Shown here: positions 24,320-64,000 of the stretch, in pieces | Position numbering within the stretch: the first letter of the stretch is position 1 | How the letters are laid out: the number at the start of each line of letters is the position of its first letter | DNA from: Escherichia coli | GTDB lineage: Bacteria > Pseudomonadota > Gammaproteobacteria > Enterobacterales > Enterobacteriaceae | Direction: 5' to 3' (one strand) | DNA length: 64,000 nucleotides | Assembly (NCBI RefSeq): GCF_003018255.1 | Contig: NZ_CP027440.1 | The notes under the pieces: generated by a model | What the model was told of the DNA's origin: nothing | Database searches by the model: none | Seen by the model: only the letters and a program-made list of their open reading frames with translations | Translations under genes and position numbers: made by a program

Positions 24320-24339
<20 letters not shown>

Positions 24340-25639
24340 TCTCCCGCATATTGCCAGCATGGCCTTTAATGAGCCGCTGATGCTTGAACCCGCCTATGCG
24401 CGGGTTTTCTTTTGTGCGCTTGCAGGCCAGCTTGGGATCAGCCGCCTGACGGATGCGGTGTCCGGCGACAGCCTGACTGCCCAGGAGGCACTCGCGACGC
24501 TGGCATTATCCGGTGATGATGACGGACCACGACAGGCCCGCAGTTATCAGGTCATGAACGGCATCGCCGTGCTGCCGGTGTCCGGCACGCTGGTCAGCCG
24601 GACGCGGGCGCTGCAGCCGTACTCGGGGATGACCGGTTACAACGGCATTATCGCCCGTCTGCAACAGGCTGCCAGCGATCCGATGGTGGACGGCATTCTG
24701 CTCGATATGGACACGCCCGGCGGAATGGTGGCAGGGGCATTTGACTGCGCTGACATCATCGCCCGTGTGCGTGACATAAAACCGGTATGGGCGCTGGCCA
24801 ATGACATGAACTGCAGTGCAGGGCAGCTGCTTGCCAGCGCCGCCTCCCGGCGTCTGGTCACGCAGACCGCCCGGACAGGCTCCATCGGCGTCATGATGGC
24901 TCACAGTAATTACGGTGCTGCGCTGGAGAAACAGGGCGTGGAAATCACGCTGATTTACAGCGGCAGCCATAAGGTGGATGGCAACCCCTACAGCCATCTT
25001 CCGGATGACGTCCGGGAGACACTGCAGTCCCGGATGGATGCAACCCGCCGGATGTTTGCGCAGAAGGTGTCGGCATATACCGGCCTGTCCGTGCAGGCTG
25101 TGCTGGATACCGAGGCTGCAGTGTACAGCGGTCAGGAGGCCATTGATGCCGGACTGGCTGATGAACTTGTCAACAGCACCGATGCGATCACCGTTATGCG
25201 TGATGCACTGGATGCACGTAAATCCCGTCTCTCAGGAGGGCGAATGACCAAAGAGACTCAATCAACAACTGTTTCAGCCACTGCTTCGCAGGCTGACGTT
25301 ACTGGCGTGGTGCAAGCGACGGAGGGCGAAAACGCCAGCGCGGCGCAGCCGGACGTGAACGCGCAGATCACCGCTGCGGTTGCGGCAGAAAACAGCCGCA
25401 TTATGGGGATCCTCAACTGTGAGGAGGCTCACGGACGCGAAGAACAGGCACGCGTGCTGGCAGAAACCCCCGGTATGACCGTGAAAACGGCCCGCCGCAT
25501 TCTGGCCGCAGCACCACAGAGTGCACAGGCGCGCAGTGACACTGCGCTGGATCGTCTGATGCAGGGGGCACCGGCACCGCTGGCTGCAGGTAACCCGGCA
25601 TCTGATGCCGTTAACGATTTGCTGAACACACCAGTGTAA
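24320..25639 (+). CDS. C: head maturation protease / scaffold C (S49 ClpP-like)
   Basis: GTG start at 24320 gives the 439-aa (M)TAELRNLPHIASMAFNEPLMLEPAYARVFF... of lambda gpC. The ORF-track start at 24185 lies inside B. Confidence 0.93.
25034..25639 (+). CDS. nu3: scaffolding protein Nu3 (internal in-frame start within C)
   Basis: In-frame ATG (MDATRRMF...) at the position equivalent to lambda nu3 (lambda 5132 plus the offset used by all neighbouring genes). Confidence 0.7.
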   Translation: MDATRRMFAQKVSAYTGLSVQAVLDTEAAVYSGQEAIDAGLADELVNSTDAITVMRDALDARKSRLSGGRMTKETQSTTVSATASQADVTGVVQATEGENASAAQPDVNAQITAAVAAENSRIMGILNCEEAHGREEQARVLAETPGMTVKTARRILAAAPQSAQARSDTALDRLMQGAPAPLAAGNPASDAVNDLLNTPV

Positions 25640-27103: not shown

Positions 27104-27502
27104 ATGACGAAAGATGAACTGATTGCCCGTCTCCGCTCGCTGGGTGAACAAATGAACCGTGATGTCAGCCTGACGGGGACGAAAGAAGAACTGGCGCTCC
27201 GTGTGGCAGAGCTGGAAGAGGAGCTTGATGACACGGATGAAACTGCCGGTCAGGACACCCCTCTCAGCCGGGAAAATGTGCTGACCGGACATGAAAATGA
27301 GGTGGGATCAGCGCAGCCGGATACCGTGATTCTGGATACGTCTGAACTGGTCACGGTCGTGGCACTGGTGAAGCTGCATACTGATGCACTTCACGCCACG
27401 CGGGATGAACCTGTGGCATTTGTGCTGCCGGGAACGGCGTTTCGTGTCTCTGCCGGTGTGGCAGCCGAAATGACAGAGCGCGGCCTGGCCAGAATGCAAT
27501 AA
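27104..27502 (+). CDS. Fi: DNA packaging protein FI
   Basis: 132 aa, MTKDELIARLRSLGEQMNRDVSLTGTKEELALRVAELEEELDD... = lambda gpFI. Confidence 0.93.
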   Translation: MTKDELIARLRSLGEQMNRDVSLTGTKEELALRVAELEEELDDTDETAGQDTPLSRENVLTGHENEVGSAQPDTVILDTSELVTVVALVKLHTDALHATRDEPVAFVLPGTAFRVSAGVAAEMTERGLARMQ

Positions 27503-30451: not shown

Positions 30452-33005
30452 ACCGGTAGGCGATCTGGTCGTTGATTTGAGTCTGGATGCGGCCAGATTT
30501 GACGAGCAGATGGCCAGAGTCAGGCGTCATTTTTCCGGTACGGAAAGTGATGCGAAAAAAACAGCGGCAGTCGTTGAACAGTCGCTGAGCCGACAGGCGC
30601 TGGCTGCACAGAAAGCGGGGATTTCCGTCGGGCAGTATAAAGCCGCCATGCGTATGCTGCCTGCACAGTTCACCGACGTGGCCACGCAGCTTGCAGGCGG
30701 GCAAAGTCCGTGGCTGATCCTGCTGCAACAGGGTGGTCAGGTTAAGGACTCCTTCGGCGGGATGATCCCCATGTTCCGGGGGCTTGCCGGTGCGATCACC
30801 CTGCCGATGGTGGGGGCCACCTCGCTGGCGGTGGCGACCGGTGCGCTGGCGTATGCCTGGTATCAGGGCAACTCAACCCTGTCCGATTTCAACAAAACGC
30901 TGGTCCTTTCCGGCAATCAGGCGGGACTGACGGCAGATCGTATGCTGGTCCTGTCCAGAGCCGGGCAGGCGGCAGGGCTGACGTTTAACCAGACCAGCGA
31001 GTCACTCAGCGCACTGGTCAAGGCGGGGGTAAGCGGTGAGGCTCAGATTGCGTCCATCAGCCAGAGTGTGGCGCGTTTCTCCTCTGTATCCGGCGTGGAG
31101 GTGGACAAGGTCGCTGAAGCCTTCGGGAAGCTGACCACAGACCCGACGTCGGGGCTGACGGCGATGGCACGCCAGTTCCATAACGTGACGGCGGAGCAGA
31201 TTGCGTATGTTGCTCAGTTGCAGCGTTCCGGCGATGAAGCCGGGGCATTGCAGGCGGCGAACGAGGCCGCAACGAAGGGGTTTGATGACCAGACCCGCCG
31301 CCTGAAAGAGAACATGGGCACGCTGGAGACCTGGGCAGAGAGGACAGCGCGGGCATTCAAATCCATGTGGGATGCGGTGCTGGATATTGGTCGTCCTGAT
31401 ACCGCGCAGGAGATGCTGATTAAGGCAGAGGCTGCGTTTAAGAAAGCAGACGACATCTGGAATCTGCGCAAGGATGATTATTTTGTTAACGATGAAGCGC
31501 GGGCGCGTTACTGGGATGATCGTGAAAAGGCCCGTCTTGCGCTTGAAGCCGCCCGAAAGAAGGCTGAGCAGCAGACTCAACAGGACAAAAATGCGCAGCA
31601 GCAGAGCGATACCGAAGCGTCACGGCTGAAATATACCGAAGAGGCGCAGAAGGCTTACGAACGGCTGCAGACGCCGCTGGAGAAATATACCGCCCGTCAG
31701 GAAGAACTGAACAAGGCACTGAAAGACGGGAAAATCCTGCAGGCGGATTACAACACGCTGATGGCGGCGGCGAAAAAGGATTATGAAGCGACGCTGAAAA
31801 AGCCGAAACAGTCCGGCGTGAAGGTGTCTGCGGGCGATCGTCAGGAAGACAGTGCTCATGCTGCCCTGCTGACGCTTCAGGCAGAACTCCGGACGCTGGA
31901 GAAGCATGCCGGAGCGAATGAGAAAATCAGCCAGCAGCGCCGGGATTTGTGGAAGGCGGAGAGTCAGTTCGCGGTACTGGAGGAGGCGGCGCAACGTCGC
32001 CAGCTGTCTGCACAGGAGAAATCCCTGCTGGCGCATAAAGATGAGACGCTGGAGTACAAACGCCAGCTGGCTGCACTTGGCGACAAGGTCACCTATCAGG
32101 AGCGCCTGAACGCGCTGGCGCAGCAGGCGGATAAATTCGCACAGCAGCAACGGGCAAAACGGGCCGCCATTGATGCGAAAAGCCGGGGGCTGACTGACCG
32201 GCAGGCAGAACGGGAAGCCACGGAACAGCGCCTGAAGGAACAGTATGGCGATAATCCGCTGGCGCTGAATAACGTCATGTCAGAGCAGAAAAAGACCTGG
32301 GCGGCTGAAGACCAGCTTCGCGGGAGCTGGATGGCAGGCCTGAAGTCCGGCTGGAGTGAGTGGGAAGAGAGCGCCACGGACAGTATGTCGCAGGTTAAAA
32401 GTGCAGCCACGCAGACCTTTGATGGTATTGCACAGAATATGGCGGCGATGCTGACCGGCAGTGAGCAGAACTGGCGCAGCTTCACCCGTTCCGTACTGTC
32501 CATGATGACAGAAATTCTGCTTAAGCAGGCAATGGTGGGGATTGTCGGGAGTATCGGCAGCGCCATTGGCGGGGCTGTTGGTGGCGGCGCATCAGCGTCA
32601 GGCGGTACAGCCATTCAGGCAGCTGCGGCGAAATTCCATTTTGCGACCGGAGGATTTACGGGAACCGGCGGCAAATATGAGCCAGCGGGGATTGTTCACC
32701 GTGGTGAATTTGTCTTCACTAAGGAGGCAACCAGCCGGATTGGCGTGGGGAATCTCTACCGGCTGATGCGCGGCTATGCCACCGGCGGTTATGTCGGTAC
32801 ACCGGGCAGCATGGCGGACAGCCGCTCGCAGGCGTCCGGGAAGTTTGAGCAGAATAACCATGTGGTGATTAACAACGACGGCACGAACGGTCAGATAGGG
32901 CCACAGGCGCTGAAGGCGGTTTATGACGTAGCCCGTAAGGCGGCAATGGATGTTGTGACCGGGCAGATGCGCGATGGTGGTCTGTTCTCCGGAGGTGGAC
33001 GATGA
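30444..33005 (+). CDS. H: tape measure protein H
   Basis: 853 aa, same length as lambda gpH, Ala/Gln-rich coiled-coil, ...GGLFSGGGR end. Confidence 0.96.
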   Translation: MAEPVGDLVVDLSLDAARFDEQMARVRRHFSGTESDAKKTAAVVEQSLSRQALAAQKAGISVGQYKAAMRMLPAQFTDVATQLAGGQSPWLILLQQGGQVKDSFGGMIPMFRGLAGAITLPMVGATSLAVATGALAYAWYQGNSTLSDFNKTLVLSGNQAGLTADRMLVLSRAGQAAGLTFNQTSESLSALVKAGVSGEAQIASISQSVARFSSVSGVEVDKVAEAFGKLTTDPTSGLTAMARQFHNVTAEQIAYVAQLQRSGDEAGALQAANEAATKGFDDQTRRLKENMGTLETWAERTARAFKSMWDAVLDIGRPDTAQEMLIKAEAAFKKADDIWNLRKDDYFVNDEARARYWDDREKARLALEAARKKAEQQTQQDKNAQQQSDTEASRLKYTEEAQKAYERLQTPLEKYTARQEELNKALKDGKILQADYNTLMAAAKKDYEATLKKPKQSGVKVSAGDRQEDSAHAALLTLQAELRTLEKHAGANEKISQQRRDLWKAESQFAVLEEAAQRRQLSAQEKSLLAHKDETLEYKRQLAALGDKVTYQERLNALAQQADKFAQQQRAKRAAIDAKSRGLTDRQAEREATEQRLKEQYGDNPLALNNVMSEQKKTWAAEDQLRGSWMAGLKSGWSEWEESATDSMSQVKSAATQTFDGIAQNMAAMLTGSEQNWRSFTRSVLSMMTEILLKQAMVGIVGSIGSAIGGAVGGGASASGGTAIQAAAAKFHFATGGFTGTGGKYEPAGIVHRGEFVFTKEATSRIGVGNLYRLMRGYATGGYVGTPGSMADSRSQASGKFEQNNHVVINNDGTNGQIGPQALKAVYDVARKAAMDVVTGQMRDGGLFSGGGR

Positions 33006-36862: not shown

Positions 36863-39778
36863 ATGGCAGTAAAGATTTCAGGTGTACTGAAAGACGGCAC
36901 AGGAAAACCGGTACAGAACTGCACAATCCAGCTGAAAGCAAAACGTAACAGTACCACGGTGGTGGTGAACACGCTGGCCTCAGAAAATCCGGATGAAGCC
37001 GGGCGTTACAGCATGGACGTTGAGTACGGTCAGTACAGCGTTATTCTGTTGGTGGAGGGATTCCCGCCGTCACATGCCGGGACCATCACCGTGTATGAAG
37101 ATTCTCAACCCGGTACGCTGAATGATTTTCTCGGTGCCATGACGGAGGATGATGCCCGTCCGGAGGCACTGCGTCGTTTTGAACTGATGGTGGAAGAGGT
37201 GGCGCGTAACGCGTCCGCGGTGGCACAGAACACGGCAGCCGCAAAGAAGTCAGCCAGCGATGCCAGCACATCTGCCCGTGAGGCGGCAACCCGTGCGACT
37301 GATGCTGCAGGCTCAGCACGCGCAGCCAGCACGTCAGCCGGACAGGCCGCGTCGTCGGCTCAGTCAGCGTCTTCCAGCGCAGGAACGGCATCAACAAAGG
37401 CCACTGAAGCATCAAAAAGTGCTGCCGCTGCTGAGTCCTCAAAAAGCGCGGCGGCCACCAGTGCCGGTGCGGCGAAAACGTCAGAAACGAATGCGGCAGC
37501 GTCACAACAATCAGCAGCCACTTCTGCATCCACCGCGACCACGAAAGCGTCAGAAGCTGCCACCTCAGCCCGGGATGCGTCGGCTTCAAAAGAGGCGGCA
37601 AAATTATCAGAAACGAGCGCAGCCTCGAGCGCCAGTAGTGCAGCCTCCTCGGCAACGGCAGCAGGCAATTCCGCGAAGGCGGCCAAAACGTCTGAGACAA
37701 ACGCTAAGTCCTCTGAAACGGCAGCAGAACAGAGTGCCTCCGCAGCAGCAGGCTCAAAAACAGCGGCTGCATTATCTGCCAGTGCCGCGTCAACAAGTGC
37801 CGGGCAGGCCTCAGCCAGTGCCACCGCCGCCGGAAAATCGGCAGAAAGTGCTGCATCGTCTGCTTCAACAGCCACAACGAATGCTGGCGAAGCCGCTGTA
37901 CAGGCCAGCGCAGCAGCGAGGTCTGCTTCCGCAGCGAAGACATCCGAGACGAACGCGAAAGCGTCGGAAACCAGCGCAGAATCCTCAAAAACGGCTGCCG
38001 CATCGTCCGCCAGTTCGGCGGCGTCATCGGCATCATCTGCGTCTGCTTCAAAAGATGAGGCGACCAGACAGGCGTCAGCAGCAAAGGGCAGCGCCACGAC
38101 GGCATCCACGAAGGCGACAGAGGCAGCTGGCAGTGCGACGGCGGCAGCTCAGAGCAAAAGTACGGCGGAATCCGCGGCAACGCGCGCCGAGACAGCGGCA
38201 AAACGGGCAGAGGATATTGCATCCGCCGTGGCGCTTGAGGATGCGAGCACGACGAAAAAGGGGATAGTACAACTCAGCAGTGCGACTAACAGCACTTCCG
38301 AGTCACTGGCGGCAACGCCAAAAGCCGTTAAGGCCGCGTATGAGCTGGCTAACGGGAAATACACCGCACAGGATGCAACGACAGCACAGAAAGGGATAGT
38401 TCAGCTTAGCAACGCGACCAACAGCACATCTGAAATGCTGGCGGCAACGCCAAAGTCGGTAAAGGCAGCCTATGACCTTGCTAACGGGAAATATACTGCT
38501 CAGGACGCTACGACAGCACAAAAAGGAATTGTCCAGCTCAGTAGTGCAACCAACAGCGCATCTGAAACGCTTGCCGCGACACCGAAAGCAGTGAAAGCAG
38601 CTAATGATAATGCGAATGGTCGGGTACCTTCTGCCCGTAAGGTGAATGGTAAGGCGCTTTCATCGGATATAACACTGACGCCGAAAGATATTGGTACGCT
38701 TAACTCAACAACAATGTCATTCAGCGGTGGTGCTGGTTGGTTCAAATTAGCAACGGTAACCATGCCACAGGCGAGTTCTGTTGTTTCAATTACGTTGATT
38801 GGTGGCGCGGGATTTAACGTGGGGTCACCTCAACAGGCAGGTATATCTGAACTTGTTTTGCGTGCAGGTAATGGTAATCCGAAGGGGATTACTGGTGCTT
38901 TATGGCAGCGCACATCGACAGGGTTTACAAATTTTGCCTGGGTCAATACATCTGGTGATACTTACGATATTTACGTTGCAATCGGAAATTATGCGACTGG
39001 TGTAAATATTCAATGGGATTATACCAGTAATGCCAGCGTGACGATTCATACGTCACCAGCATATTCTGCTAATAAGCCGGAAGGGTTAACGGACGGTACA
39101 GTTTATTCACTCTATACGCCATCAGAGCAGTTTTATCCGCCTGGCGCACCAATCCCGTGGCCATCAGATACCGTTCCGTCTGGCTATGCCCTGATGCAGG
39201 GGCAGACTTTTGACAAATCTGCATACCCGAAACTTGCAGCCGCTTATCCGTCAGGCGTGATCCCTGATATGCGTGGCTGGACGATTAAGGGCAAACCTGC
39301 CAGTGGTCGGGCCGTATTGTCTCAGGAACAGGACGGCATTAAATCGCACACCCACAGCGCCAGCGCATCCAGTACGGAATTGGGGACGAAAACCACATCG
39401 TCGTTTGATTACGGCACTAAATCCACGAATAACACCGGGGCGCACACGCACAGTGTGAGCGGTACAGCCGCAAGTGCCGGAAACCATACTCATAGTGTCA
39501 CAGGCGCATCAGCAGTCAGCCAGTGGTCACAAAATGGGTCAGTACATAAGGTAGTGTCTGCGGCCAGTGTGAATACAAGTGCTGCAGGAGCGCACACTCA
39601 TAGTGTCAGCGGCACAGCTGCATCTGCAGGTGCTCACGCACATACTGTCGGTATTGGTGCTCATACGCACTCTGTTGCGATTGGCTCACATGGACACACC
39701 ATCACCGTTAACGCTGCTGGTAACGCGGAAAACACCGTCAAAAACATCGCATTTAACTACATTGTGAGGCTTGCATAA
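36863..39778 (+). CDS. stf: side tail fibre protein Stf (full length)
   Basis: [37 protein letters not shown]... = lambda Stf N-terminus. It has a long Ala/Ser/Thr-rich shaft, three tail-fibre repeats and a C-terminal HxH repeat region. Confidence 0.92.
38258..38620 (+). repeat. 2.75 tandem copies of a 132-bp (44-aa) phage tail-fibre repeat inside stf
   Basis: KGIVQLS(S/N)ATNS(T/A)SE(S/M/T)LAATPK(A/S)VKAAY(E/D)[15 protein letters not shown] starting at 38258, 38390 and 38522. Confidence 0.9.
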
Positions 39779-40362
39779 TGGCATTCAGAATGAGTGAACA
39801 ACCACGGACCATAAAAATTTATAATCTGCTGGCCGGAACTAATGAATTTATTGGTGAAGGTGACGCATATATTCCGCCTCATACAGGTCTGCCAGCAAAC
39901 AGTACCTATATTGCACCGCCAGATATTCCGGCTGGCTTCGTGGCTGTTTTCAACAGTGATGAGGCATCGTGGCATCTCGTTGAAGATCATCGGGGTAAAA
40001 CGGTTTATGACGTGGCTTCCGGCGACGCGTTATTTATTTCTGAACTCGGCTCATTACCGGAAAATGTCACCTGGTTATCCCCGGAAGGGGAGTTTCAGAA
40101 GTGGAACGGCACAGCCTGGGTGAAAGATGCAGAAGCAGAAAAACTATTCCGGATCCGGGAGGCGGAAGAAACAAAAAACAGCCTGATGCAGGCAGCGAAT
40201 GAGCATATTGCGCCACTTCAGGATGCTGTGGATCTGGAGATCGCAACGGAAGAAGAGGCGTCGTTGCTGGCAGCATGGAAGAAGTATCGGGTGTTGCTGA
40301 ACCGTGTTGATACATCAGTAGCACCGGATATTGAGTGGCCTGCTGTCCCTGTTATGGAGTAA
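39778..40362 (+). CDS. tfa: tail fibre assembly chaperone Tfa
   Basis: 194 aa, [43 protein letters not shown]...EWPAVPVME = lambda Tfa. Confidence 0.95.
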
Positions 40363-40465: not shown

Positions 40466-41254
40466 TTAAGCATCACGTATTGCCAATCTGATTTTTGACT
40501 GATACCAATTGGGGCCTTCTGCAATTATTTCTTCCTCAACATGCATGATGGGATGCATTTCAATTTCAGAGTTTTTGACTTTTAGATCTAGTCCATATTT
40601 TTTTGAAATTTGTAAAACTTCATTTTTGAAATCCTTATCTGCGAAAGGTGAAATCCTTATTTCTTCCAACAGATTGTTAAGAGATACAGGGACTAGTTTT
40701 CCCTTTACAGGTGGAGTGTTAAAGGTATTCTCTTGAAAAATAGCTCTAAACTCTTTTTCGTATTCGAAAGATGGTCTCTTGTTAAAGAATACATCTGATT
40801 CTGGATTGTATTGTTTTATCCAGAAATTTTTGACGTATTTTACGTGTTTTAATTGTAGTTTGTTTAAATTATTATTTTCAAGTTGGCTTTGGAGGTTTTT
40901 TTTCTTTGATTTTATGACAACGCCTTTAGCGGGGTTTTTACAATACAGCTTCCACATAGCTTCAGATTCATGTTCGTTACAATGCCAGCAACTTATATAT
41001 GTCCTCTCGCTTATTTCCTTAAGTGTCTTTAAATTGAATGCCATGAAAGGATCTAAGTCCATGCCGGCACCATGAGTAGCGCATAGTTTTTCCTGTGTCT
41101 CAATGAATTTTTTATAGCCAGTATGTCCCCAAGCAAATTCACCTTCGAATGGATCTTCAAAATTTTTTGCTGAGCAAAAAAATAAAGCATTTTGTTCGAG
41201 TAACATAGAGAATTTCTCTATGTCAAGGTATCGCCATATATACTCAGTGTGCAT
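40466..41254 (-). CDS. DUF2971-like protein (262 aa), accessory b-region gene
   Basis: IWRYLDIEKFSMLLEQNALFFCSAKNFEDPFEGEF and YISCWHCNEHESEAMWKLYC match my recollection of the DUF2971 signature (FNDPFE ... S.W...ES.AMW..Y). AAGGAG lies 6 nt before the ATG at 41254. AT-rich. Confidence 0.65.
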   Translation of the reverse strand: MHTEYIWRYLDIEKFSMLLEQNALFFCSAKNFEDPFEGEFAWGHTGYKKFIETQEKLCATHGAGMDLDPFMAFNLKTLKEISERTYISCWHCNEHESEAMWKLYCKNPAKGVVIKSKKKNLQSQLENNNLNKLQLKHVKYVKNFWIKQYNPESDVFFNKRPSFEYEKEFRAIFQENTFNTPPVKGKLVPVSLNNLLEEIRISPFADKDFKNEVLQISKKYGLDLKVKNSEIEMHPIMHVEEEIIAEGPNWYQSKIRLAIRDA

Positions 41255-41380
41255 GATAGCTCCTTGCAATATAACTATTTCTATCTGTTCATTTGTACTT
41301 AAAAAGGATTGAGTAGCCTGAACAGTTCTATCCGTAAATATACCAGATAGAAGAGTTGTACAATAACAAATCCTCCGTAT

Positions 41381-41421
41381 AAGAACCAGCCATAATAGTC
41401 TGGTTCTTAAGGTTTTTTTTT
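41381..41421 (+). terminator. hairpin plus T9 tract (plus-strand terminator-like) between the two minus-strand accessory genes
   Basis: AAGAACCAG-CCATAATAGT-CTGGTTCTT, then AAGG and nine T (41413-41421). Confidence 0.4.
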
Positions 41422-41427
41422 GTTCGA

Positions 41428-41437
41428 GGGGGGGGGG
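41428..41437. repeat. G10 homopolymer tract
   Basis: Ten consecutive G, 30 nt downstream of the 400-aa gene's stop and ~175 nt upstream of the DUF2971-like gene's start. Confidence 0.9.
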
Positions 41438-41466
41438 CTACGATTCGTCCCCATATCGGCGATAAA

Positions 41467-42669
41467 TTAGGCTTGTACCAACGCTTCTGTTTCTGTGAGT
41501 GAAATCTGATAGCGTTTTACTGCCTCAGCAAAGGCGTGCGCGGCATCTGCATTTGATACCATATATTCTTCAGTTACCCCTGTTTGAGAATGGAAAGTAA
41601 TATTTCCATAAATGCAAATAGGGATTTGGTAGTTGTCTTTAAAACGACGGTCTGGTGAGCCATTCTTATTCGTTTTCGCCCATGTATAACCATCTATGCG
41701 TGAGTCACTGGGAACACCTTCTTCCTCATGGAATCTTAGATATTCTGAACTAATTTGTAATTCGCGTAAATCAATCAGAGCGAATGCTCCATCAGCTCGT
41801 GGTATGACTGCAACTCCAGGATAAAGCAAAATATCGTCTCCATTTACATTTTCAAACCTCATCGCACGCCCTGTAAATTGAATGAGATCCGTTGAACTAA
41901 AATCAAAGGTAACTGGGTGACGATTAACAGACCGGGTTGCTAATGTTCTTTCAGCAAACTGGTCTGTAGCTTTATCTGCAGTAATATCCCATTTTTTGAC
42001 ACTCGATTTTAACATATCAAATGCATGGACCATCGCTGCATATGCGCGCTGTGAAGCATCACTGCTCTCGAATGTTATGGCTATTTTTGTGCTGTCTTCC
42101 CATGAAACTAGGCGAGATATCTCAGCTTGGGTTAGGGGGAGTAGTGTCTCAAGTTCTGCGATGCGTCGTTTGTAAAACCAACGGAATAGACTTGATTTGC
42201 GTCGAGCCAGCTCGCTTTTTTGTTTTGATTCTTCGGCAAGAGCCTCTTGAAGATCTGCTTTTATCTCTGCTCTTTGTTCTCGTGCTTTAGCAATCAAATC
42301 TCGTAAAGGTAAAAGGGAGGTACTTGTAAGGACTTCTACCGAAGCGCTGGATATTTCATTCATGCCAGCTACAGGCATATATATTTTAGCGTTCGATGGT
42401 GTGTTTTCTGGAGATGACCCAGACTCCAAATGAGGTTCTGTAGGGGCTGGATTTAATGGATTGGTAACTGAGTATCCATCATCATAGGGCAAGGTAGGTG
42501 TAGTATAAGATAAGCCTGTGCCCGGTAATCCGACAGTTGCTCTAACCCCTTTTTTACCAACATTGACAGTTGCGCCAGGCACGCCAATGCTTGCACTTAT
42601 TCCACGCTTGCCAATGTTGAGTCGAACGCCAGGAAATAGAGTAAAGGTTTGTCTGAAACGAAGAGACAT
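41467..42669 (-). CDS. DUF4236-like N-terminal domain protein with ~340-aa uncharacterised C-terminal region
   Basis: MSLRFRQTFTLFPGVRLNIGKRGISASIGVPGATVNVGKKGVRATVGLPGTGLSYT matches the remembered DUF4236 repeat pattern. A Pro-rich linker, a predicted coiled-coil (REQRAEIKADLQEALAEESKQKSELARRK) and a beta-rich C-terminus follow. Confidence 0.65.
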   Translation of the reverse strand: MSLRFRQTFTLFPGVRLNIGKRGISASIGVPGATVNVGKKGVRATVGLPGTGLSYTTPTLPYDDGYSVTNPLNPAPTEPHLESGSSPENTPSNAKIYMPVAGMNEISSASVEVLTSTSLLPLRDLIAKAREQRAEIKADLQEALAEESKQKSELARRKSSLFRWFYKRRIAELETLLPLTQAEISRLVSWEDSTKIAITFESSDASQRAYAAMVHAFDMLKSSVKKWDITADKATDQFAERTLATRSVNRHPVTFDFSSTDLIQFTGRAMRFENVNGDDILLYPGVAVIPRADGAFALIDLRELQISSEYLRFHEEEGVPSDSRIDGYTWAKTNKNGSPDRRFKDNYQIPICIYGNITFHSQTGVTEEYMVSNADAAHAFAEAVKRYQISLTETEALVQA

Positions 42670-43114
42670 AAAGTTATACCTATGTAGTTTTGTACACCAA
42701 AGTTCGAAATGTTTTTATATGAATATTGAGCTGATTCATAAGATTATTCCTAGCTCATCTTCATTCCGCCATGATACAACGGTTTGCTTGCAGGTGAAGA
42801 AAAACGTAAAAGCCCAATAATGATTGGTGGGCTGGTGGAGTTGAAACCGCAGGCTCGTCGTCTGCAAGAAAGTGCTGCGGCTGGCTGGTCAGCTTCTGAT
42901 AGTGAGAATATTGAATGATTTCAAGCTGTTATCGATTTTGCGTATTTTTTGTATGGGAGGATTTGTGCCTCCTCCCATCGGTCCTCCATGACTTTACGCC
43001 ACTGTCTCTAGGGCTGCTATGTGCCAGAAGCTGACATGGCTAGTCCCTAGGCACATTGACCAGCAGGTCATCCATCCCTTAACATATCGTTATGAAATTT
43101 AAAGGATCGATGTT

Positions 43115-43744
43115 ATGGCTTATGAATTAACTTACAGACCCCTCGAATACGGATCGAATGAAAATTATCTTCGCAGAAGTTTGAAAGACCCTTCATTACT
43201 AATTCCTGAAAAAGAGATAGGATGTTTTCTAGTTCTCCAATCCTCATATGCACTACATGAAACTATTGGACTTTCAGCCCAAAACCTAGATATTTCATGG
43301 CAGTCTAACCAAAATTACTTATCGTCAAATTGTGATGGTGAGGCCCCTCTAGCTTGTTATCCTATTTATTTGATTACAGTTGGAGATGATGAAAATGAAA
43401 GGCTTGTTTACATCGGCAAGACATCATCGAAGAGCTCACGATTTTCTTCAGGCCATAGCGCAATTACTAAGTTACACCATCCTAAATATGACAATTTGTC
43501 AAAGCGTATATATTTGTGCTGCGTTGTTTTTTTAAAAAACAGCCAAACCATCCCAATAGAATGGATTAAGCCTTTTGATTTCGCTGAGAAACTATTGAGT
43601 GAATTTGAAGCGAACTTGATTTATTGGAATAAACCAGAGTTGAATACGCAACATATGAAGAAAGAACCTACATTTGAATATGGGCAAGTTCATGCACAAA
43701 ATGTAACTGGCGCAACGTATTTTTGGCATGATAAATTCATTTAG
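43115..43744 (+). CDS. GIY-YIG-like nuclease domain protein (209 aa) with ~80-aa N-terminal extension
   Basis: P83-I-Y...(13 aa)...Y99-I-G-K-T...R109...H114...E163/E165...N172 aligns with I-TevI GIYQIKN...VYVGSA..R..H...ERENFWIKELN. AAAGGA SD. Confidence 0.6.
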   Translation: MAYELTYRPLEYGSNENYLRRSLKDPSLLIPEKEIGCFLVLQSSYALHETIGLSAQNLDISWQSNQNYLSSNCDGEAPLACYPIYLITVGDDENERLVYIGKTSSKSSRFSSGHSAITKLHHPKYDNLSKRIYLCCVVFLKNSQTIPIEWIKPFDFAEKLLSEFEANLIYWNKPELNTQHMKKEPTFEYGQVHAQNVTGATYFWHDKFI

Positions 43745-44171
43745 AACTATATAAACAAAACTTGAGTTAATTCTCTATTTTCCGCACTTTTTTTCCAATG
43801 AGTTCTACATATTGGTCAAGATTGTGCTCAAGGGCGCAATAAACTTAGTATTGCGTCTGTAATTCGCTCAGACTGTGTGAAAACGGTTTAAGCTTCAGAG
43901 GTGAATGCAAAAGAGGCTGACGCCTGCGCTTTTAAGTAAAATCTGCATCATCTTTCTATGTAAATTTTCTAAGAAGTCATCTAAACGCGTGACCTTCTGT
44001 CAGCAATCAGAGTTTTCATACAGCCTGCGTTCGAAGCTGCCCTTGGGCCCGCCTATGGCAGTTGAGTGCCAGAAGCGGACATTTTAACTAATATTCAGCA
44101 TGTTTATCATTATGTCACACGCAAAATGATAAATTAATATATTCAGAGGATTTTTTAACTCAAAAATGGCG

Positions 44172-44199
44172 TTGTAATTCAATGAACCATGCCTATAAT
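44172..44199 (+). promoter_or_regulatory. candidate sigma-70 promoter for the DUF3800-like gene
   Basis: TTGTAA-16 nt-TATAAT, ending 39 nt upstream of the TTG start at 44238. Confidence 0.35.
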
Positions 44200-44237
44200 C
44201 TAACATAAAAATAATATATCATTGAAAGGATAAGGCT

Positions 44238-44972
44238 TTGAATATTTACATTGATGAGTCGATACACGAGGAGTTTGGGTTTATGATCTTGGCTTATGTA
44301 GTTTGTAATCAGGATCCTCAGTCTGATATATACAAGATTCTTTCAGAACATTCAGTTGATGAACATCACTCATGCGCAAGAATGGATAAATCTGAATCTT
44401 TAAGAAATTTGAGGAGTAATCTTATTTCCTACTTAAACGCAAATTGTCGATGGGGGGCATTTATTATGCCAAGTGAGTATCGCCATCGTTCTTATGAGGA
44501 TGTGTCTTTTTTATTAAGCTTATTGATTAAGAATTTTCCAGACAGGAAAGGGAATATTTTTTTCGATGAAGGTATCATAAACCCTACAGAAGCTCTCAGT
44601 CTATGCTCTGATGAAGTCAAAGTTATAACATGCTCATCCCATGAAGTTTGTGGGATACAACTTGCTGATCTAGTAGCATCTTTTAGTGGTGTTAGGTTGA
44701 GAGAAACAATAACAGGAAAAGCAAAAATTTTAACTTACGGTTACGACTTCGGCTATGAGCCCCCAATAGAATCCCCGCTTGGATTTGAGCTTTTTGCTAC
44801 ACTTCGACAATCTATGCTCAGGGGAAATGAACCTCTTGGGAATGAGATGCCTGAATTTGCCACATTTAAAACTATTAATAAAGGATTGGTTTTGTCGAAA
44901 AACTTAACAACTGAATTTAGTCAGTTGGCATTAAAAACCTTTGGGGAAGTGTACTTAGGTTGCATCCATTAA
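44238..44972 (+). CDS. DUF3800-like protein (244 aa, TTG start)
   Basis: N-terminal NIYIDESIHEEFG and later GIQLADLVA match the remembered DUF3800 hallmarks (Y.DESG ... Q.AD). AAGGA lies 8 nt upstream of the TTG. Confidence 0.6.
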   Translation: MNIYIDESIHEEFGFMILAYVVCNQDPQSDIYKILSEHSVDEHHSCARMDKSESLRNLRSNLISYLNANCRWGAFIMPSEYRHRSYEDVSFLLSLLIKNFPDRKGNIFFDEGIINPTEALSLCSDEVKVITCSSHEVCGIQLADLVASFSGVRLRETITGKAKILTYGYDFGYEPPIESPLGFELFATLRQSMLRGNEPLGNEMPEFATFKTINKGLVLSKNLTTEFSQLALKTFGEVYLGCIH

Positions 44973-45220
44973 ATGTAATATTACTATTTATCAATTACTA
45001 GCAAAATTAAGCTAGGTGTTCCTAAGAATATAGGTGACGATGATACAACTGACTTCCGCTTTTCGCTCATAACAGACATTCACTACAGTTATGGTAGAAG
45101 GTATGCATGCTGGGTGGGGAAAGTATGAAGGAAAAGAAGACTGCCGCGCCGTTTGTCGTCACATTTATCTTCATTGGCTATGCAAGTCGTAATACAAGGT
45201 GGGACAAAACAGAGACACAT

Positions 45221-45251
45221 AAGGTCTCACAAAGGTCTGCAAGGCCTCACA
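45221..45251 (+). repeat. three tandem ~10-bp repeats, candidate integrase arm-type binding sites in the att P arm
   Basis: AAGGTCTCACA / AAGGTCTGC / AAGGCCTCACA in helical phase, ~190-220 bp from the icd junction in AT-rich DNA. Confidence 0.3.
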
Positions 45252-45440
45252 TGTATTGAGATGTTAATAAAATGTAGACTTGTAATTTGGATATAAATGG
45301 TAGAGAAAACCTTTCCCCAAAATAAAAACGAACGTCAATGAAATCAAACGGTTGAATAAAGTTGATTTTGGCTAATAAAAAGACAATAAAATAATTTTTA
45401 TCATTAAATATCAATGAATTGAACTTAATGTTTTTATATA

Positions 45441-45605
45441 CTGTTACGCCATATGGGCTGGACTGAAGCCGCAGACCTGATTGTTAAAGGTATGGAAGGC
45501 GCAATCAACGCCAAGACTGTAACCTATGACTTCGAACGTCTGATGGAAGGCGCTAAACTGCTGAAATGCAGCGAGTTTGGTGATGCGATCATCAAGAACA
45601 TGTAA
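45441..45605 (+). pseudogene. icdC: displaced native 3' end of isocitrate dehydrogenase gene (icdC), marks attR
   Basis: Translates [54 protein letters not shown], the last ~54 residues of Icd, with no upstream icd sequence. 165 bp, as for the K-12 e14 icdC. Confidence 0.9.
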
Positions 45606-63502: not shown

Positions 63503-64000
63503 TCAGACTTCAGGTACCTCAAAGAGTGTCTTTTTACCGTGTCTTTTCTGATACTCATTACAGGTGTTAATCATTTTTTTGGCCGCTTCTTTTAGCAAAG
63601 AAAGCATTAAATCATCATAATCAACATAGAATCTGGTTGTTTCAGTTTCCGTTTTTATCTCCCCGATGGCGGCTATTTCGGTGGTTAATTTCAATTTGGC
63701 GGCATCGATATCTTTATTCGCTTGTTTAACCGTGTTAGACAGGGTGGTAAAGAAACTCTGCACAGATTTTAACTTGTTCTTCAATTCTGGAATCAGTTTC
63801 CCTTCAACTACGCCCGCTGCAACAGAATACAGTTTCTTGATGCCGTCATCCAGTACCTTAATGAGAATGCCTTTCTGGGCGAATGCTTCTATTCTATTTT
63901 TTAGCCGGGCGATATTTTTCATTTCTGCTGGATGAGCGTCGTCGCCAGAAGGCCACGTGAGCACAGGATAAGAGAACGAAAAATCAGCAGTCTATGCAGC
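63503..64000 (-). pseudogene. hlyE: hemolysin E / cytolysin A remnant with internal deletion and upstream disruption
   Basis: The C-terminal 108 aa match remembered ClyA (Y196 onward, ...GKLIPELKNKLKSVQ...KKTLFEVPEV). Upstream, ...AQKGILIKVLDDGIKKL joins directly to YSVAAGVVEGK, so residues ~128-195 (about 204 bp) are missing. The frame hits a TAG about 10 codons upstream of 63964. Confidence 0.8.

Follow-up and report, generated by a model that had tools for sequence, protein, structure and literature searches.

What stands between the accessory genes of a prophage when nearly the same short sequence is found in front of two of them? This question is raised by a lambdoid prophage within icd of Escherichia coli (assembly GCF_003018255.1, contig NZ_CP027440.1), of which a chromosomal stretch of 64,000 nucleotides (nt), called here the window, was analysed. 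An earlier sequence-only reading had pointed to the 17-mers GTGCCAGAAGCTGACAT (43021-43037) and GTGCCAGAAGCGGACAT (44066-44082), both on the plus strand and differing at one position (T/G, position 12); their coordinates were confirmed, as was their spacing to the downstream start codons, 78 nt (43115-43037) and 156 nt (44238-44082). The probable explanation is that these 17-mers are copies of one half, site II, of a bipartite recombination element marking the joins of two cargo cassettes with the prophage backbone, and that they belong to a putative integron-like, possibly cassette-exchange, system. Judged from comparison of genomes, the family is a widespread, apparently undescribed system tied to a small tyrosine recombinase and present also in phage lambda; a literature search, with most subscription journals outside its coverage, found no description of the element, of the recombinase or of the lambda sites.

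Anatomy of the element and its place in the prophage

The element is about 78 nt long and bipartite. Site I (GTCCGCT-nn-TCGCTC-An-AGCGGAC) is followed by a variable centre and by site II (GTCCGCT-TT-GTGCCA-GA-AGCGGAC), and the 17-mer corresponds to the site II core GTGCCA with the outer arm GAAGCGGAC. A collection of 141 distinct full elements from many Enterobacterales genera aligns to AACGTCCGCTnnTCGCTCAnAGCGGACC-(about 25 variable positions)-GTCCGCTTTGTGCCAGAAGCGGACGTTG. Four heptamers, GTCCGCT, AGCGGAC, GTCCGCT and AGCGGAC, occupy alignment columns 15-21, 32-38, 64-70 and 81-87, and create two palindromic simple sites with arms of roughly 9 bp, inverted and built on GTCCGCT/AGCGGAC, around the 6-bp centres TCGCTC (site I) and GTGCCA (site II). 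This anatomy can be given with moderate-to-high confidence.

A profile of the element, built from the copies in an island of E. coli Eco_23-2667 and then run on the window, called a complete element at 44007-44087, a right half at 43009-43039 and a left half at 45052-45077. The region thus called can be read as block A, site II, cassette 1, full element, cassette 2, site I and block B, with the following features:

42847-43020, plus strand: block A, conserved lambdoid prophage backbone, the counterpart of lambda J02459 24162-24334 and ending at site II
43021-43037, plus strand: first 17-mer, a site II (core GTGCCA 43021-43026, outer arm GAAGCTGACAT 43027-43037), at the junction of backbone and cassette 1
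43027-44065, plus strand: cassette 1, an open reading frame (ORF) at 43115-43744 (209 aa) with 3' non-coding DNA
44007-44087, plus strand: full bipartite element closing cassette 1 on its 3' side (nhmmer E = 1.5e-15; alignment row 44004-44091)
44066-44082, plus strand: second 17-mer, a site II (core GTGCCA 44066-44071, outer arm GAAGCGGACAT 44072-44082), at the junction of cassettes 1 and 2
44072-45062, plus strand: cassette 2, ORF 44238-44972 (244 aa, DUF3800)
45052-45077, plus strand: site I, ACTTCCGCT-TT-TCGCTC-AT-AACAGAC, core TCGCTC 45063-45068; the right cargo boundary, opening block B
45063-45300, plus strand: block B, conserved backbone homologous to the lambda sib/tI region beside attP

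The ORF of cassette 1 has a weak GIY-YIG match, under the Pfam cut-off. In the full element site I is degenerate (arm 44018-44024, core position 44027-44032, arm 44035-44041), and the hairpin arms AGCTGCC (44035-44041) and GGCAGTT (44057-44063) precede the site II core. The whole 2.8-kb arrangement is common to 30 of 5426 complete E. coli genomes, and cassette 2 is present only in the 28-30 genomes which have it. Three of these 30 (S1-KEN-03-A, S1-KEN-04-A and EC0430) carry an annotated IS5-family insertion sequence (ISKpn26-like) under the match to 42700-45500.

Taken by itself, the pair of 17-mers has only local significance. By our arithmetic about 6 chance pairs matching at 16 of 17 positions are expected per 64 kb, and about 0.01 within the 2.9-kb cargo region; when the window was shuffled, the pattern with up to 3 mismatches was matched 0.37 times on average. 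The pair is judged to be real because conserved blocks in about 2000 E. coli genomes terminate with the motif and because a family of loci with the strict pattern exists in other species. A scan with this strict pattern, one genome per species, gave 98 loci, where about 2 are expected by our calculation. Nearly all are from Enterobacterales (Citrobacter, Klebsiella, Enterobacter, Pantoea, Erwinia, Rahnella, Yersinia, Serratia and others), and many have 2-5 co-oriented elements, 0.6-4 kb apart, which separate cassettes of 1-3 genes on either strand (GNATs, ASCH-like proteins, hydrolases, LysR/LysE pairs, defence-like genes). Arrays are seen at loci L007, L024, L089, L087, L108-L110 and L117-L121. 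Full elements are detectable in 1425 of the 5426 E. coli genomes, with 1-5 per genome and none annotated, and a collection of 28.0 billion bases holds 2265 element places, roughly one per 12 Mb. In E. coli C10 two site II copies stand 140 nt apart with no gene between them (L003, 4101-4257), which looks like an "empty" cassette.

Closer inspection of the two copies in the window changed some details of the sequence-only reading. The segments 43008-43037 and 44053-44082 form a gap-free match of 30 nt with 80% identity, and the likeness of both to T(A/T)GGGC..GC.TAT upstream of the 17-mer is present, but it is not conserved in the alignment of the family. The inverted repeat around the first copy exists as well (GGCACAT 43050-43056, CTAGGG 43008-43013, CCCTAG 43045-43050), with its left arm ATGTGCC at 43019-43025 and not at 43017-43023.

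The docking site in lambdoid prophages and in lambda

Block A, taken with its site II (42847-43037), has matches in about 2000 E. coli genomes and in 170 phage records, all of which stop at about 43034-43037. On the other side, the homology of block B in 2435 E. coli genomes starts at 45051-45055 of the window. The variable cargo of lambdoid prophages is always enclosed by site II, at the end of block A, and site I, at the start of block B. In 17 E. coli genomes the two blocks are directly joined in an empty junction, ...GGACTGCTATGT|ATGCTGATTGGGG... (GCTATGT|ATGCTG), and one prophage has a single GNAT cassette between them. The proposal that the motif marks cassette junctions in E. coli prophages has thus been borne out, and the motif is conserved far beyond its two places in the window.

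The same layout is present in lambda, where the counterpart of block A and its site II (J02459 24162-24351) is an unannotated segment between ea47 and ea31. The sequences GTGCCGGAGCGGAC (24336-24349) and ACTTCCGCTCCTCGCTCATAACAGAC (27320-27345) bracket ea31 and ea59. An unlabelled misc_recomb feature of the lambda record (L122, J02459 24389-24390) is situated 38 nt right of the lambda site II. Block B of the window resembles the lambda sib/tI region beside attP, yet the prophage of the window uses the icd attachment site.

Mobility of cassette 1 and breakpoints at the cores

Window positions 43020-44080 match, with 99.3% identity, positions 31254-32314 of locus L007, an unrelated genomic island of E. 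coli Eco_23-2667, in which 8 co-oriented copies of the element in 13 kb separate single genes (HEPN, DUF4160, DUF8087, GNAT). The island copy of cassette 1 begins with ...TGTGCCAGAAGCTGACAT, ends with ...GAGTGCCAGAAGCGGAC and is bounded by the same two sites. A truncated copy is present in E. coli E2348/69; the 339 nt left of the second 17-mer recur in E2348/69 and in Eco_23-2667, and the match ends at the 17-mer. At this right end of the cassette the three contexts diverge from position 7 of the 17-mer onward, which puts the junction in or just after GTGCCA. At the left end, the T at 43032 of the first copy (GCTGAC) is also present in the cassette of Eco_23-2667, and other sampled copies of block A have G there; in these comparisons the outer-arm variant GCTGAC goes along with cassette 1.

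The ends of BLAST high-scoring pairs cluster at the elements but extend through their conserved arms, and were therefore replaced by a first-mismatch walk, in which each shared segment was followed outwards to the first mismatch and the divergence after it, with positions given relative to the first base of the core. At site I, 10 of the 12 events of the 5' walk had their first mismatch at -1, and 10 of the 17 events of the 3' walk had it at +6/+7. At site II it fell at +6/+7 in 11 of 25 events and at +15, the next variable position, in 6 more; all these events were counted from both partners with related genomes included, are not independent and are indicative only. They suggest that both cores act as mosaic joints and that the joints are confined to about 6-8 bp. 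The sequence-only reading had offered recombination scars at cassette boundaries as one possibility. The boundaries were rightly placed, both copies standing exactly where homology between genomes ends, whereas the copies look like functional sites of a defined family and not like passive scars.

Structure of the element

Integron attC sites are recognised as a folded single strand, with structure conserved more than sequence, and support for such a fold is weak here. RNAalifold gave no consensus fold on the element alignment. The inner hairpin is paired at 79.2% compared with 77.4% in shuffles and shows 29 double changes against 19, which is weak covariation, and explicit pair counts gave no covariation for the site I palindrome. 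The outer arms are complementary at 6.21 of 9 positions within the same element, 6.30 within the same cassette and 6.38 in random pairs. In the second copy of the window both hairpin arms are replaced in a compensatory way (AGCTGCC/GGCAGTT). The arms are conserved chiefly in their sequence; because covariation is weak and the outer arms are no more complementary than random ones, they look like protein-binding sequences.

The linked small tyrosine recombinase

In Eco_23-2667 a frameshifted gene for a tyrosine recombinase of 200 aa adjoins one site II. Intact copies are present in about 1000 of the 5426 E. coli genomes, and the DNA match ends again at the 17-mer; recombinase-positive strains besides Eco_23-2667 include A1_181, AVS0710 and EF5-18-41. 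The protein (e.g. WP_023147793.1 and WP_001305755.1) comprises the catalytic domain only (PF00589), is FimB/FimE-like in size and has a distant likeness to Xer proteins (XerC model 44.7 bits, E = 1.1e-11, cut-off 335 bits; XerD in PDB E = 4e-3). Across E. coli, Proteus, Providencia, Idiomarina, Pseudoalteromonas and Cycloclasticus it is 77-95% identical, and every catalytic residue (R51, K79, H148, R151, H174, Y183) is invariant.

The recombinase unit has the same ends in E. coli, Proteus and marine gammaproteobacterial contigs. A TCGCTC core is placed about 48 nt before the ATG, and the gene is followed by a hairpin, CAGGGCTG...CAGCCCT, and by GTGCCA-GAAGCGGAC about 30 nt past the stop. The gene is framed by one core of either site and so stands where the 78-nt elements have their 25-nt variable centre; these elements have the look of miniature forms derived from the recombinase unit. 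Three E. coli recombinase loci were taken from a spread list; all three have full elements within about 4 kb, compared with the roughly one element place per 12 Mb of the whole collection, and the products of their cassettes include reverse transcriptase, dynamin-like, CBS, SIR2-nSTAND, AbiJ-like and OLD/UvrD-like proteins. The candidate of one recombinase beside every array was rejected, as 2053 ORFs from about 100 loci clustered into LysR, LysE, SDR, ars and IS3 families with no common recombinase.

Two further loci with the small recombinase deserve mention. In Proteus mirabilis (L118-L121, 4620-14300) the recombinase, YaaC and several elements are carried by an island that has icd on one side and a 3' fragment of icd on the other. 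Some strains have more icd fragments and a prophage after that island, so that these mosaics share icd as a target in a second genus too. In E. coli A1_181 (L108, 8800-15400) the recombinase and elements are found in the early region of a Rac/Qin-like prophage, beside hokD and rem. The K-12 Qin pseudogene intK/ydfW presumably has the same position and may be a remnant of this gene.

Proposed mechanism

The explanation favoured here starts from direct observations, namely the anatomy of the element, its family and arrays, the empty site, the move of one cassette between contexts, the core-hugging breaks and the core-flanked recombinase gene. The prophage backbone would be a docking point in which the GIY-YIG-like and DUF3800 cassettes are seated in tandem. 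The 200-aa recombinase, supplied in trans from outside the window, would bind the heptamer arms and exchange strands inside the 6-bp cores. Recombination of site II with site II would insert or excise circular cassettes in the manner of integrons. Because site I and site II share arms but differ in cores, cargo flanked by II and I might be swapped between replicons without deletion, as in recombinase-mediated cassette exchange. We infer that the recombinase acts on these sites, that exchange takes place at the cores and that the system may still be active; the mechanism is held with moderate confidence.

Several findings weigh against this explanation. The window has no copy of the recombinase and a sister genome (H264) appears to be without it, and among the 98 element-selected loci, each taken with 8 kb, only 3 contain this recombinase (L044, L074, L092). 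The pair L010/L012 breaks between site I and the loop, not cleanly in a core, and the breakpoint counts carry the dependence already described. The terminal element of block B is constant whatever cargo adjoins it, which fits homologous recombination in the flanks equally well, and the covariation of the hairpin arms is weak.

A broader proposal, put forward tentatively, is a cassette-capture and exchange system of Gammaproteobacteria. Its recombinase would be encoded inside its own bipartite site, and miniature 78-nt sites would delimit cassettes, often defence-like, which dock in islands and in the lambdoid b region, so that ea31-ea59 of lambda might itself be a cassette. The two cores would allow insertion and excision as well as exchange.

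Turnover of defence islands is an open question, which integrons explain for Vibrio but not for E. coli. If active, the system would provide a homology-independent route for single defence and accessory genes among prophages, islands and plasmids across Enterobacterales. It would also give a new reading of the unannotated 24.16-24.35 kb block of lambda and of the ea31-ea59 flanks, long sequenced and unexplained, and would offer a very small recombinase with two naturally heterospecific sites, possibly useful for cassette exchange. If inactive, it would still leave a precise map of mosaic joints at a prophage hotspot. The model of the 78-nt element is in any case a practical marker to delimit cassettes and find new cargo genes.

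Alternative explanations

The best surviving alternative, which is considered unlikely, regards the 17-mers as passive mosaic joints, that is, as the functionless edges of backbone blocks between which cargo is swapped by homologous recombination with RecA or phage Red. In its favour, blocks A and B measure about 200 nt each and show 80-95% identity across thousands of prophages, the terminal element of block B is the same for any cargo, and homologous recombination is the accepted route of exchange at other phage hotspots (PMC9122126, PMC13586616). It is harder to see why passive edges should lie in a defined 78-nt element within non-phage arrays of many genera, or why cassette 1 should have moved between a prophage and an island without common flanks. 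The clustering of first mismatches right beside the 6-bp cores and the framing of a recombinase gene by the same cores speak against it as well.

Less probable still is a selfish repeat, i.e. a small tyrosine-recombinase element with miniatures resembling MITEs (miniature inverted-repeat transposable elements) or REPINs, inserting between accessory genes, the "cassettes" then being merely the genes that happen to intervene. The recombinase gene fills the position of the variable centre, so the 78-nt elements do resemble internally deleted copies of it, and they are imperfect palindromes. This explanation is opposed by the low copy number, 1-5 detectable per E. coli genome, and by the joint movement of cargo and site variants. 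Simple insertion of whole elements, moreover, would not yield what is seen in prophages, where the cargo separates the two halves, a left-hand site II and a right-hand site I. An insertion sequence or MITE with terminal inverted repeats was a separate candidate and was rejected, because the left boundary falls inside the would-be repeat (TATGT|GCCAGAAGC) and empty and occupied sites reveal no recent duplication.

A regulatory element was the first suggestion of the sequence-only reading, which had proposed shared regulator-binding sites. That an operator for a common repressor, an insulator of transcription or a terminator stands in front of each cargo gene is now very improbable. Inverted heptamer arms are typical of operators, and both copies in the window are upstream of plus-strand genes, but neither distance nor orientation to genes is fixed: promoter-like hexamers lie 19 and 90 nt downstream of the 17-mers, inside each cassette, the distances to the start codons are equally unlike, and genes between co-oriented elements are found on both strands. 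An intrinsic terminator was rejected, since the terminator scan places no terminator-like site at either 17-mer and the hairpins are without T-runs, and Rfam 15 at the gathering threshold gave nothing at the 17-mer sites, its hits in the window being only IS009 and C0299, elsewhere. Homology breakpoints are left unexplained by any regulatory function.

The proposal that the motif is the 3' remnant of a gene duplicated with each insertion was not upheld, as the motif is non-coding in the family alignment and its conservation tracks the inverted heptamer arms, not codons. Likewise rejected were a minus-strand mini-ORF (ATG TCN GCT TCT GGC AC, in which the mismatch is synonymous), both frames of which stop after 6-9 codons and whose conservation is arm-like, and an att duplication of tRNA type, the motif being unlike any tRNA end. 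A chance repeat without biological meaning has practically no standing: a match at 16 of 17 positions is indeed expected somewhere in 64 kb and 5 of 100 shuffles had at least 2 matches with up to 3 mismatches, but the comparative data have already refuted it.

Neighbouring features of the window

The genes of the region run in this order: tail genes, the tail fibre and its assembly gene, three cargo genes on the minus strand (DUF2971, hypothetical, DUF4236) and the two cargo genes on the plus strand. Beyond the end of the prophage, near 45440, come the displaced 3' fragment of icd (45453 onward) and iraM. The minus-strand genes form a second cargo region (40466-42669, minus strand) between tail-fibre assembly and block A, without flanking elements. 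Of its products, the DUF2971 protein hits PDC-S31 (E = 1e-20), a candidate defence family of PADLOC, and has the DUF4236 protein beside it; in other prophages the region is swapped for ea47, a LEM-3-like GIY-YIG gene or a type II restriction-modification system. With regard to the cargo of the cassettes, PADLOC recognised neither protein as a known defence protein, with only a weak N-terminal match of the DUF3800 protein to PDC-M04A.

In the left part of block A, the segment 42784-42950 (plus strand), which includes an annotated ORF of 44 aa (WP_001297180.1), is similar to the 3' terminus of the side-tail-fibre gene in phage mEpX2 and is probably what is left of a late-gene end and not a real gene. 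Within block A, at 42974-42997 (plus strand), a hairpin GGGAGGA-TTTGTGCC-TCCTCCC has in its loop GTGCC, as in the site II core; the same hairpin in lambda has GTACC and weaker arms. The two Rfam hits are a full-length IS009 (RF02111, 203 bits) at 40121-40319 (plus strand), inside the tail-fibre-assembly ORF 39778-40362, and the 5' part of the C0299 small RNA (RF00119) at 63952-64000 (plus strand), cut by the end of the window.

Comparison with known systems

Integrons are the closest parallel. The attC architecture, as reportedly described by Stokes and co-workers in 1997, consists of two simple sites, each of paired inverted boxes of about 7 bp round a spacer, flanking a variable centre. Both systems have arrays of small cassettes parted by structured, co-oriented elements with two simple sites, a docking site on a larger replicon, a right-hand box past the crossover which belongs to the next cassette, and cargo rich in GNAT, toxin-like and defence-like genes. 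They differ in the boxes, which in the 141 elements are GTCCGCT/AGCGGAC with cores TCGCTC/GTGCCA and in attC are RYYYAAC/GTTRRRY, and in the recombinase, which here has 200 aa, matches only PF00589 in Pfam and scores 17.6 and 17.2 bits on the NCBIfam integron-integrase models (cut-offs 435 and 265), whereas IntI is a full-length tyrosine recombinase with an extra domain specific to integrons. Its gene lies inside the element or array and points into the array, whereas IntI diverges from attI. Both simple sites appear here to act as breakpoints, the genes in the cassettes are found on either strand and seem to have promoters of their own, and support for a folded single strand is weak.

The pdif modules of Acinetobacter plasmids, which depend on host XerCD acting at a 28-bp XerC-XerD binding site related to dif, and other dif-like systems are likewise gene modules bounded in many contexts by short sites of arm, 6-bp core and arm, and the nearest sequence relatives of the recombinase are Xer proteins. 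In contrast to pdif, a dedicated recombinase gene is linked to the sites here, each element has two cores, and the orientation is direct and not alternating; to our knowledge the site sequence is unrelated to dif.

The sfx sites of the Rci shufflon of IncI plasmids have a 7-bp core GTGCCAA with a conserved right arm and a left arm which is not conserved. The core here is GTGCCA(G/A), with a conserved outer arm and several copies with divergent inner arms, a likeness that may be coincidence. Shufflons, however, invert segments inside one gene, Rci is larger, and the arm sequences differ.

The defence and moron hotspots of temperate phages (P2/P4; lambdoid exchange at boundaries and linkers) also hold hypervariable cargo, including defence candidates, between conserved blocks at a fixed place. 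They are explained by homologous recombination in flanking core genes, whereas the site pair here is a defined one of recombination type, which non-phage arrays and a recombinase gene also have.

Engineered cassette exchange with heterospecific lox or FRT sites is a laboratory technique, and we infer its natural equivalent here from the distinct cores TCGCTC and GTGCCA, which would be heterospecific to each other. The likeness is that two sites with shared arms and unlike cores enclose the cargo; such sites should pair with their counterparts elsewhere and not with one another.

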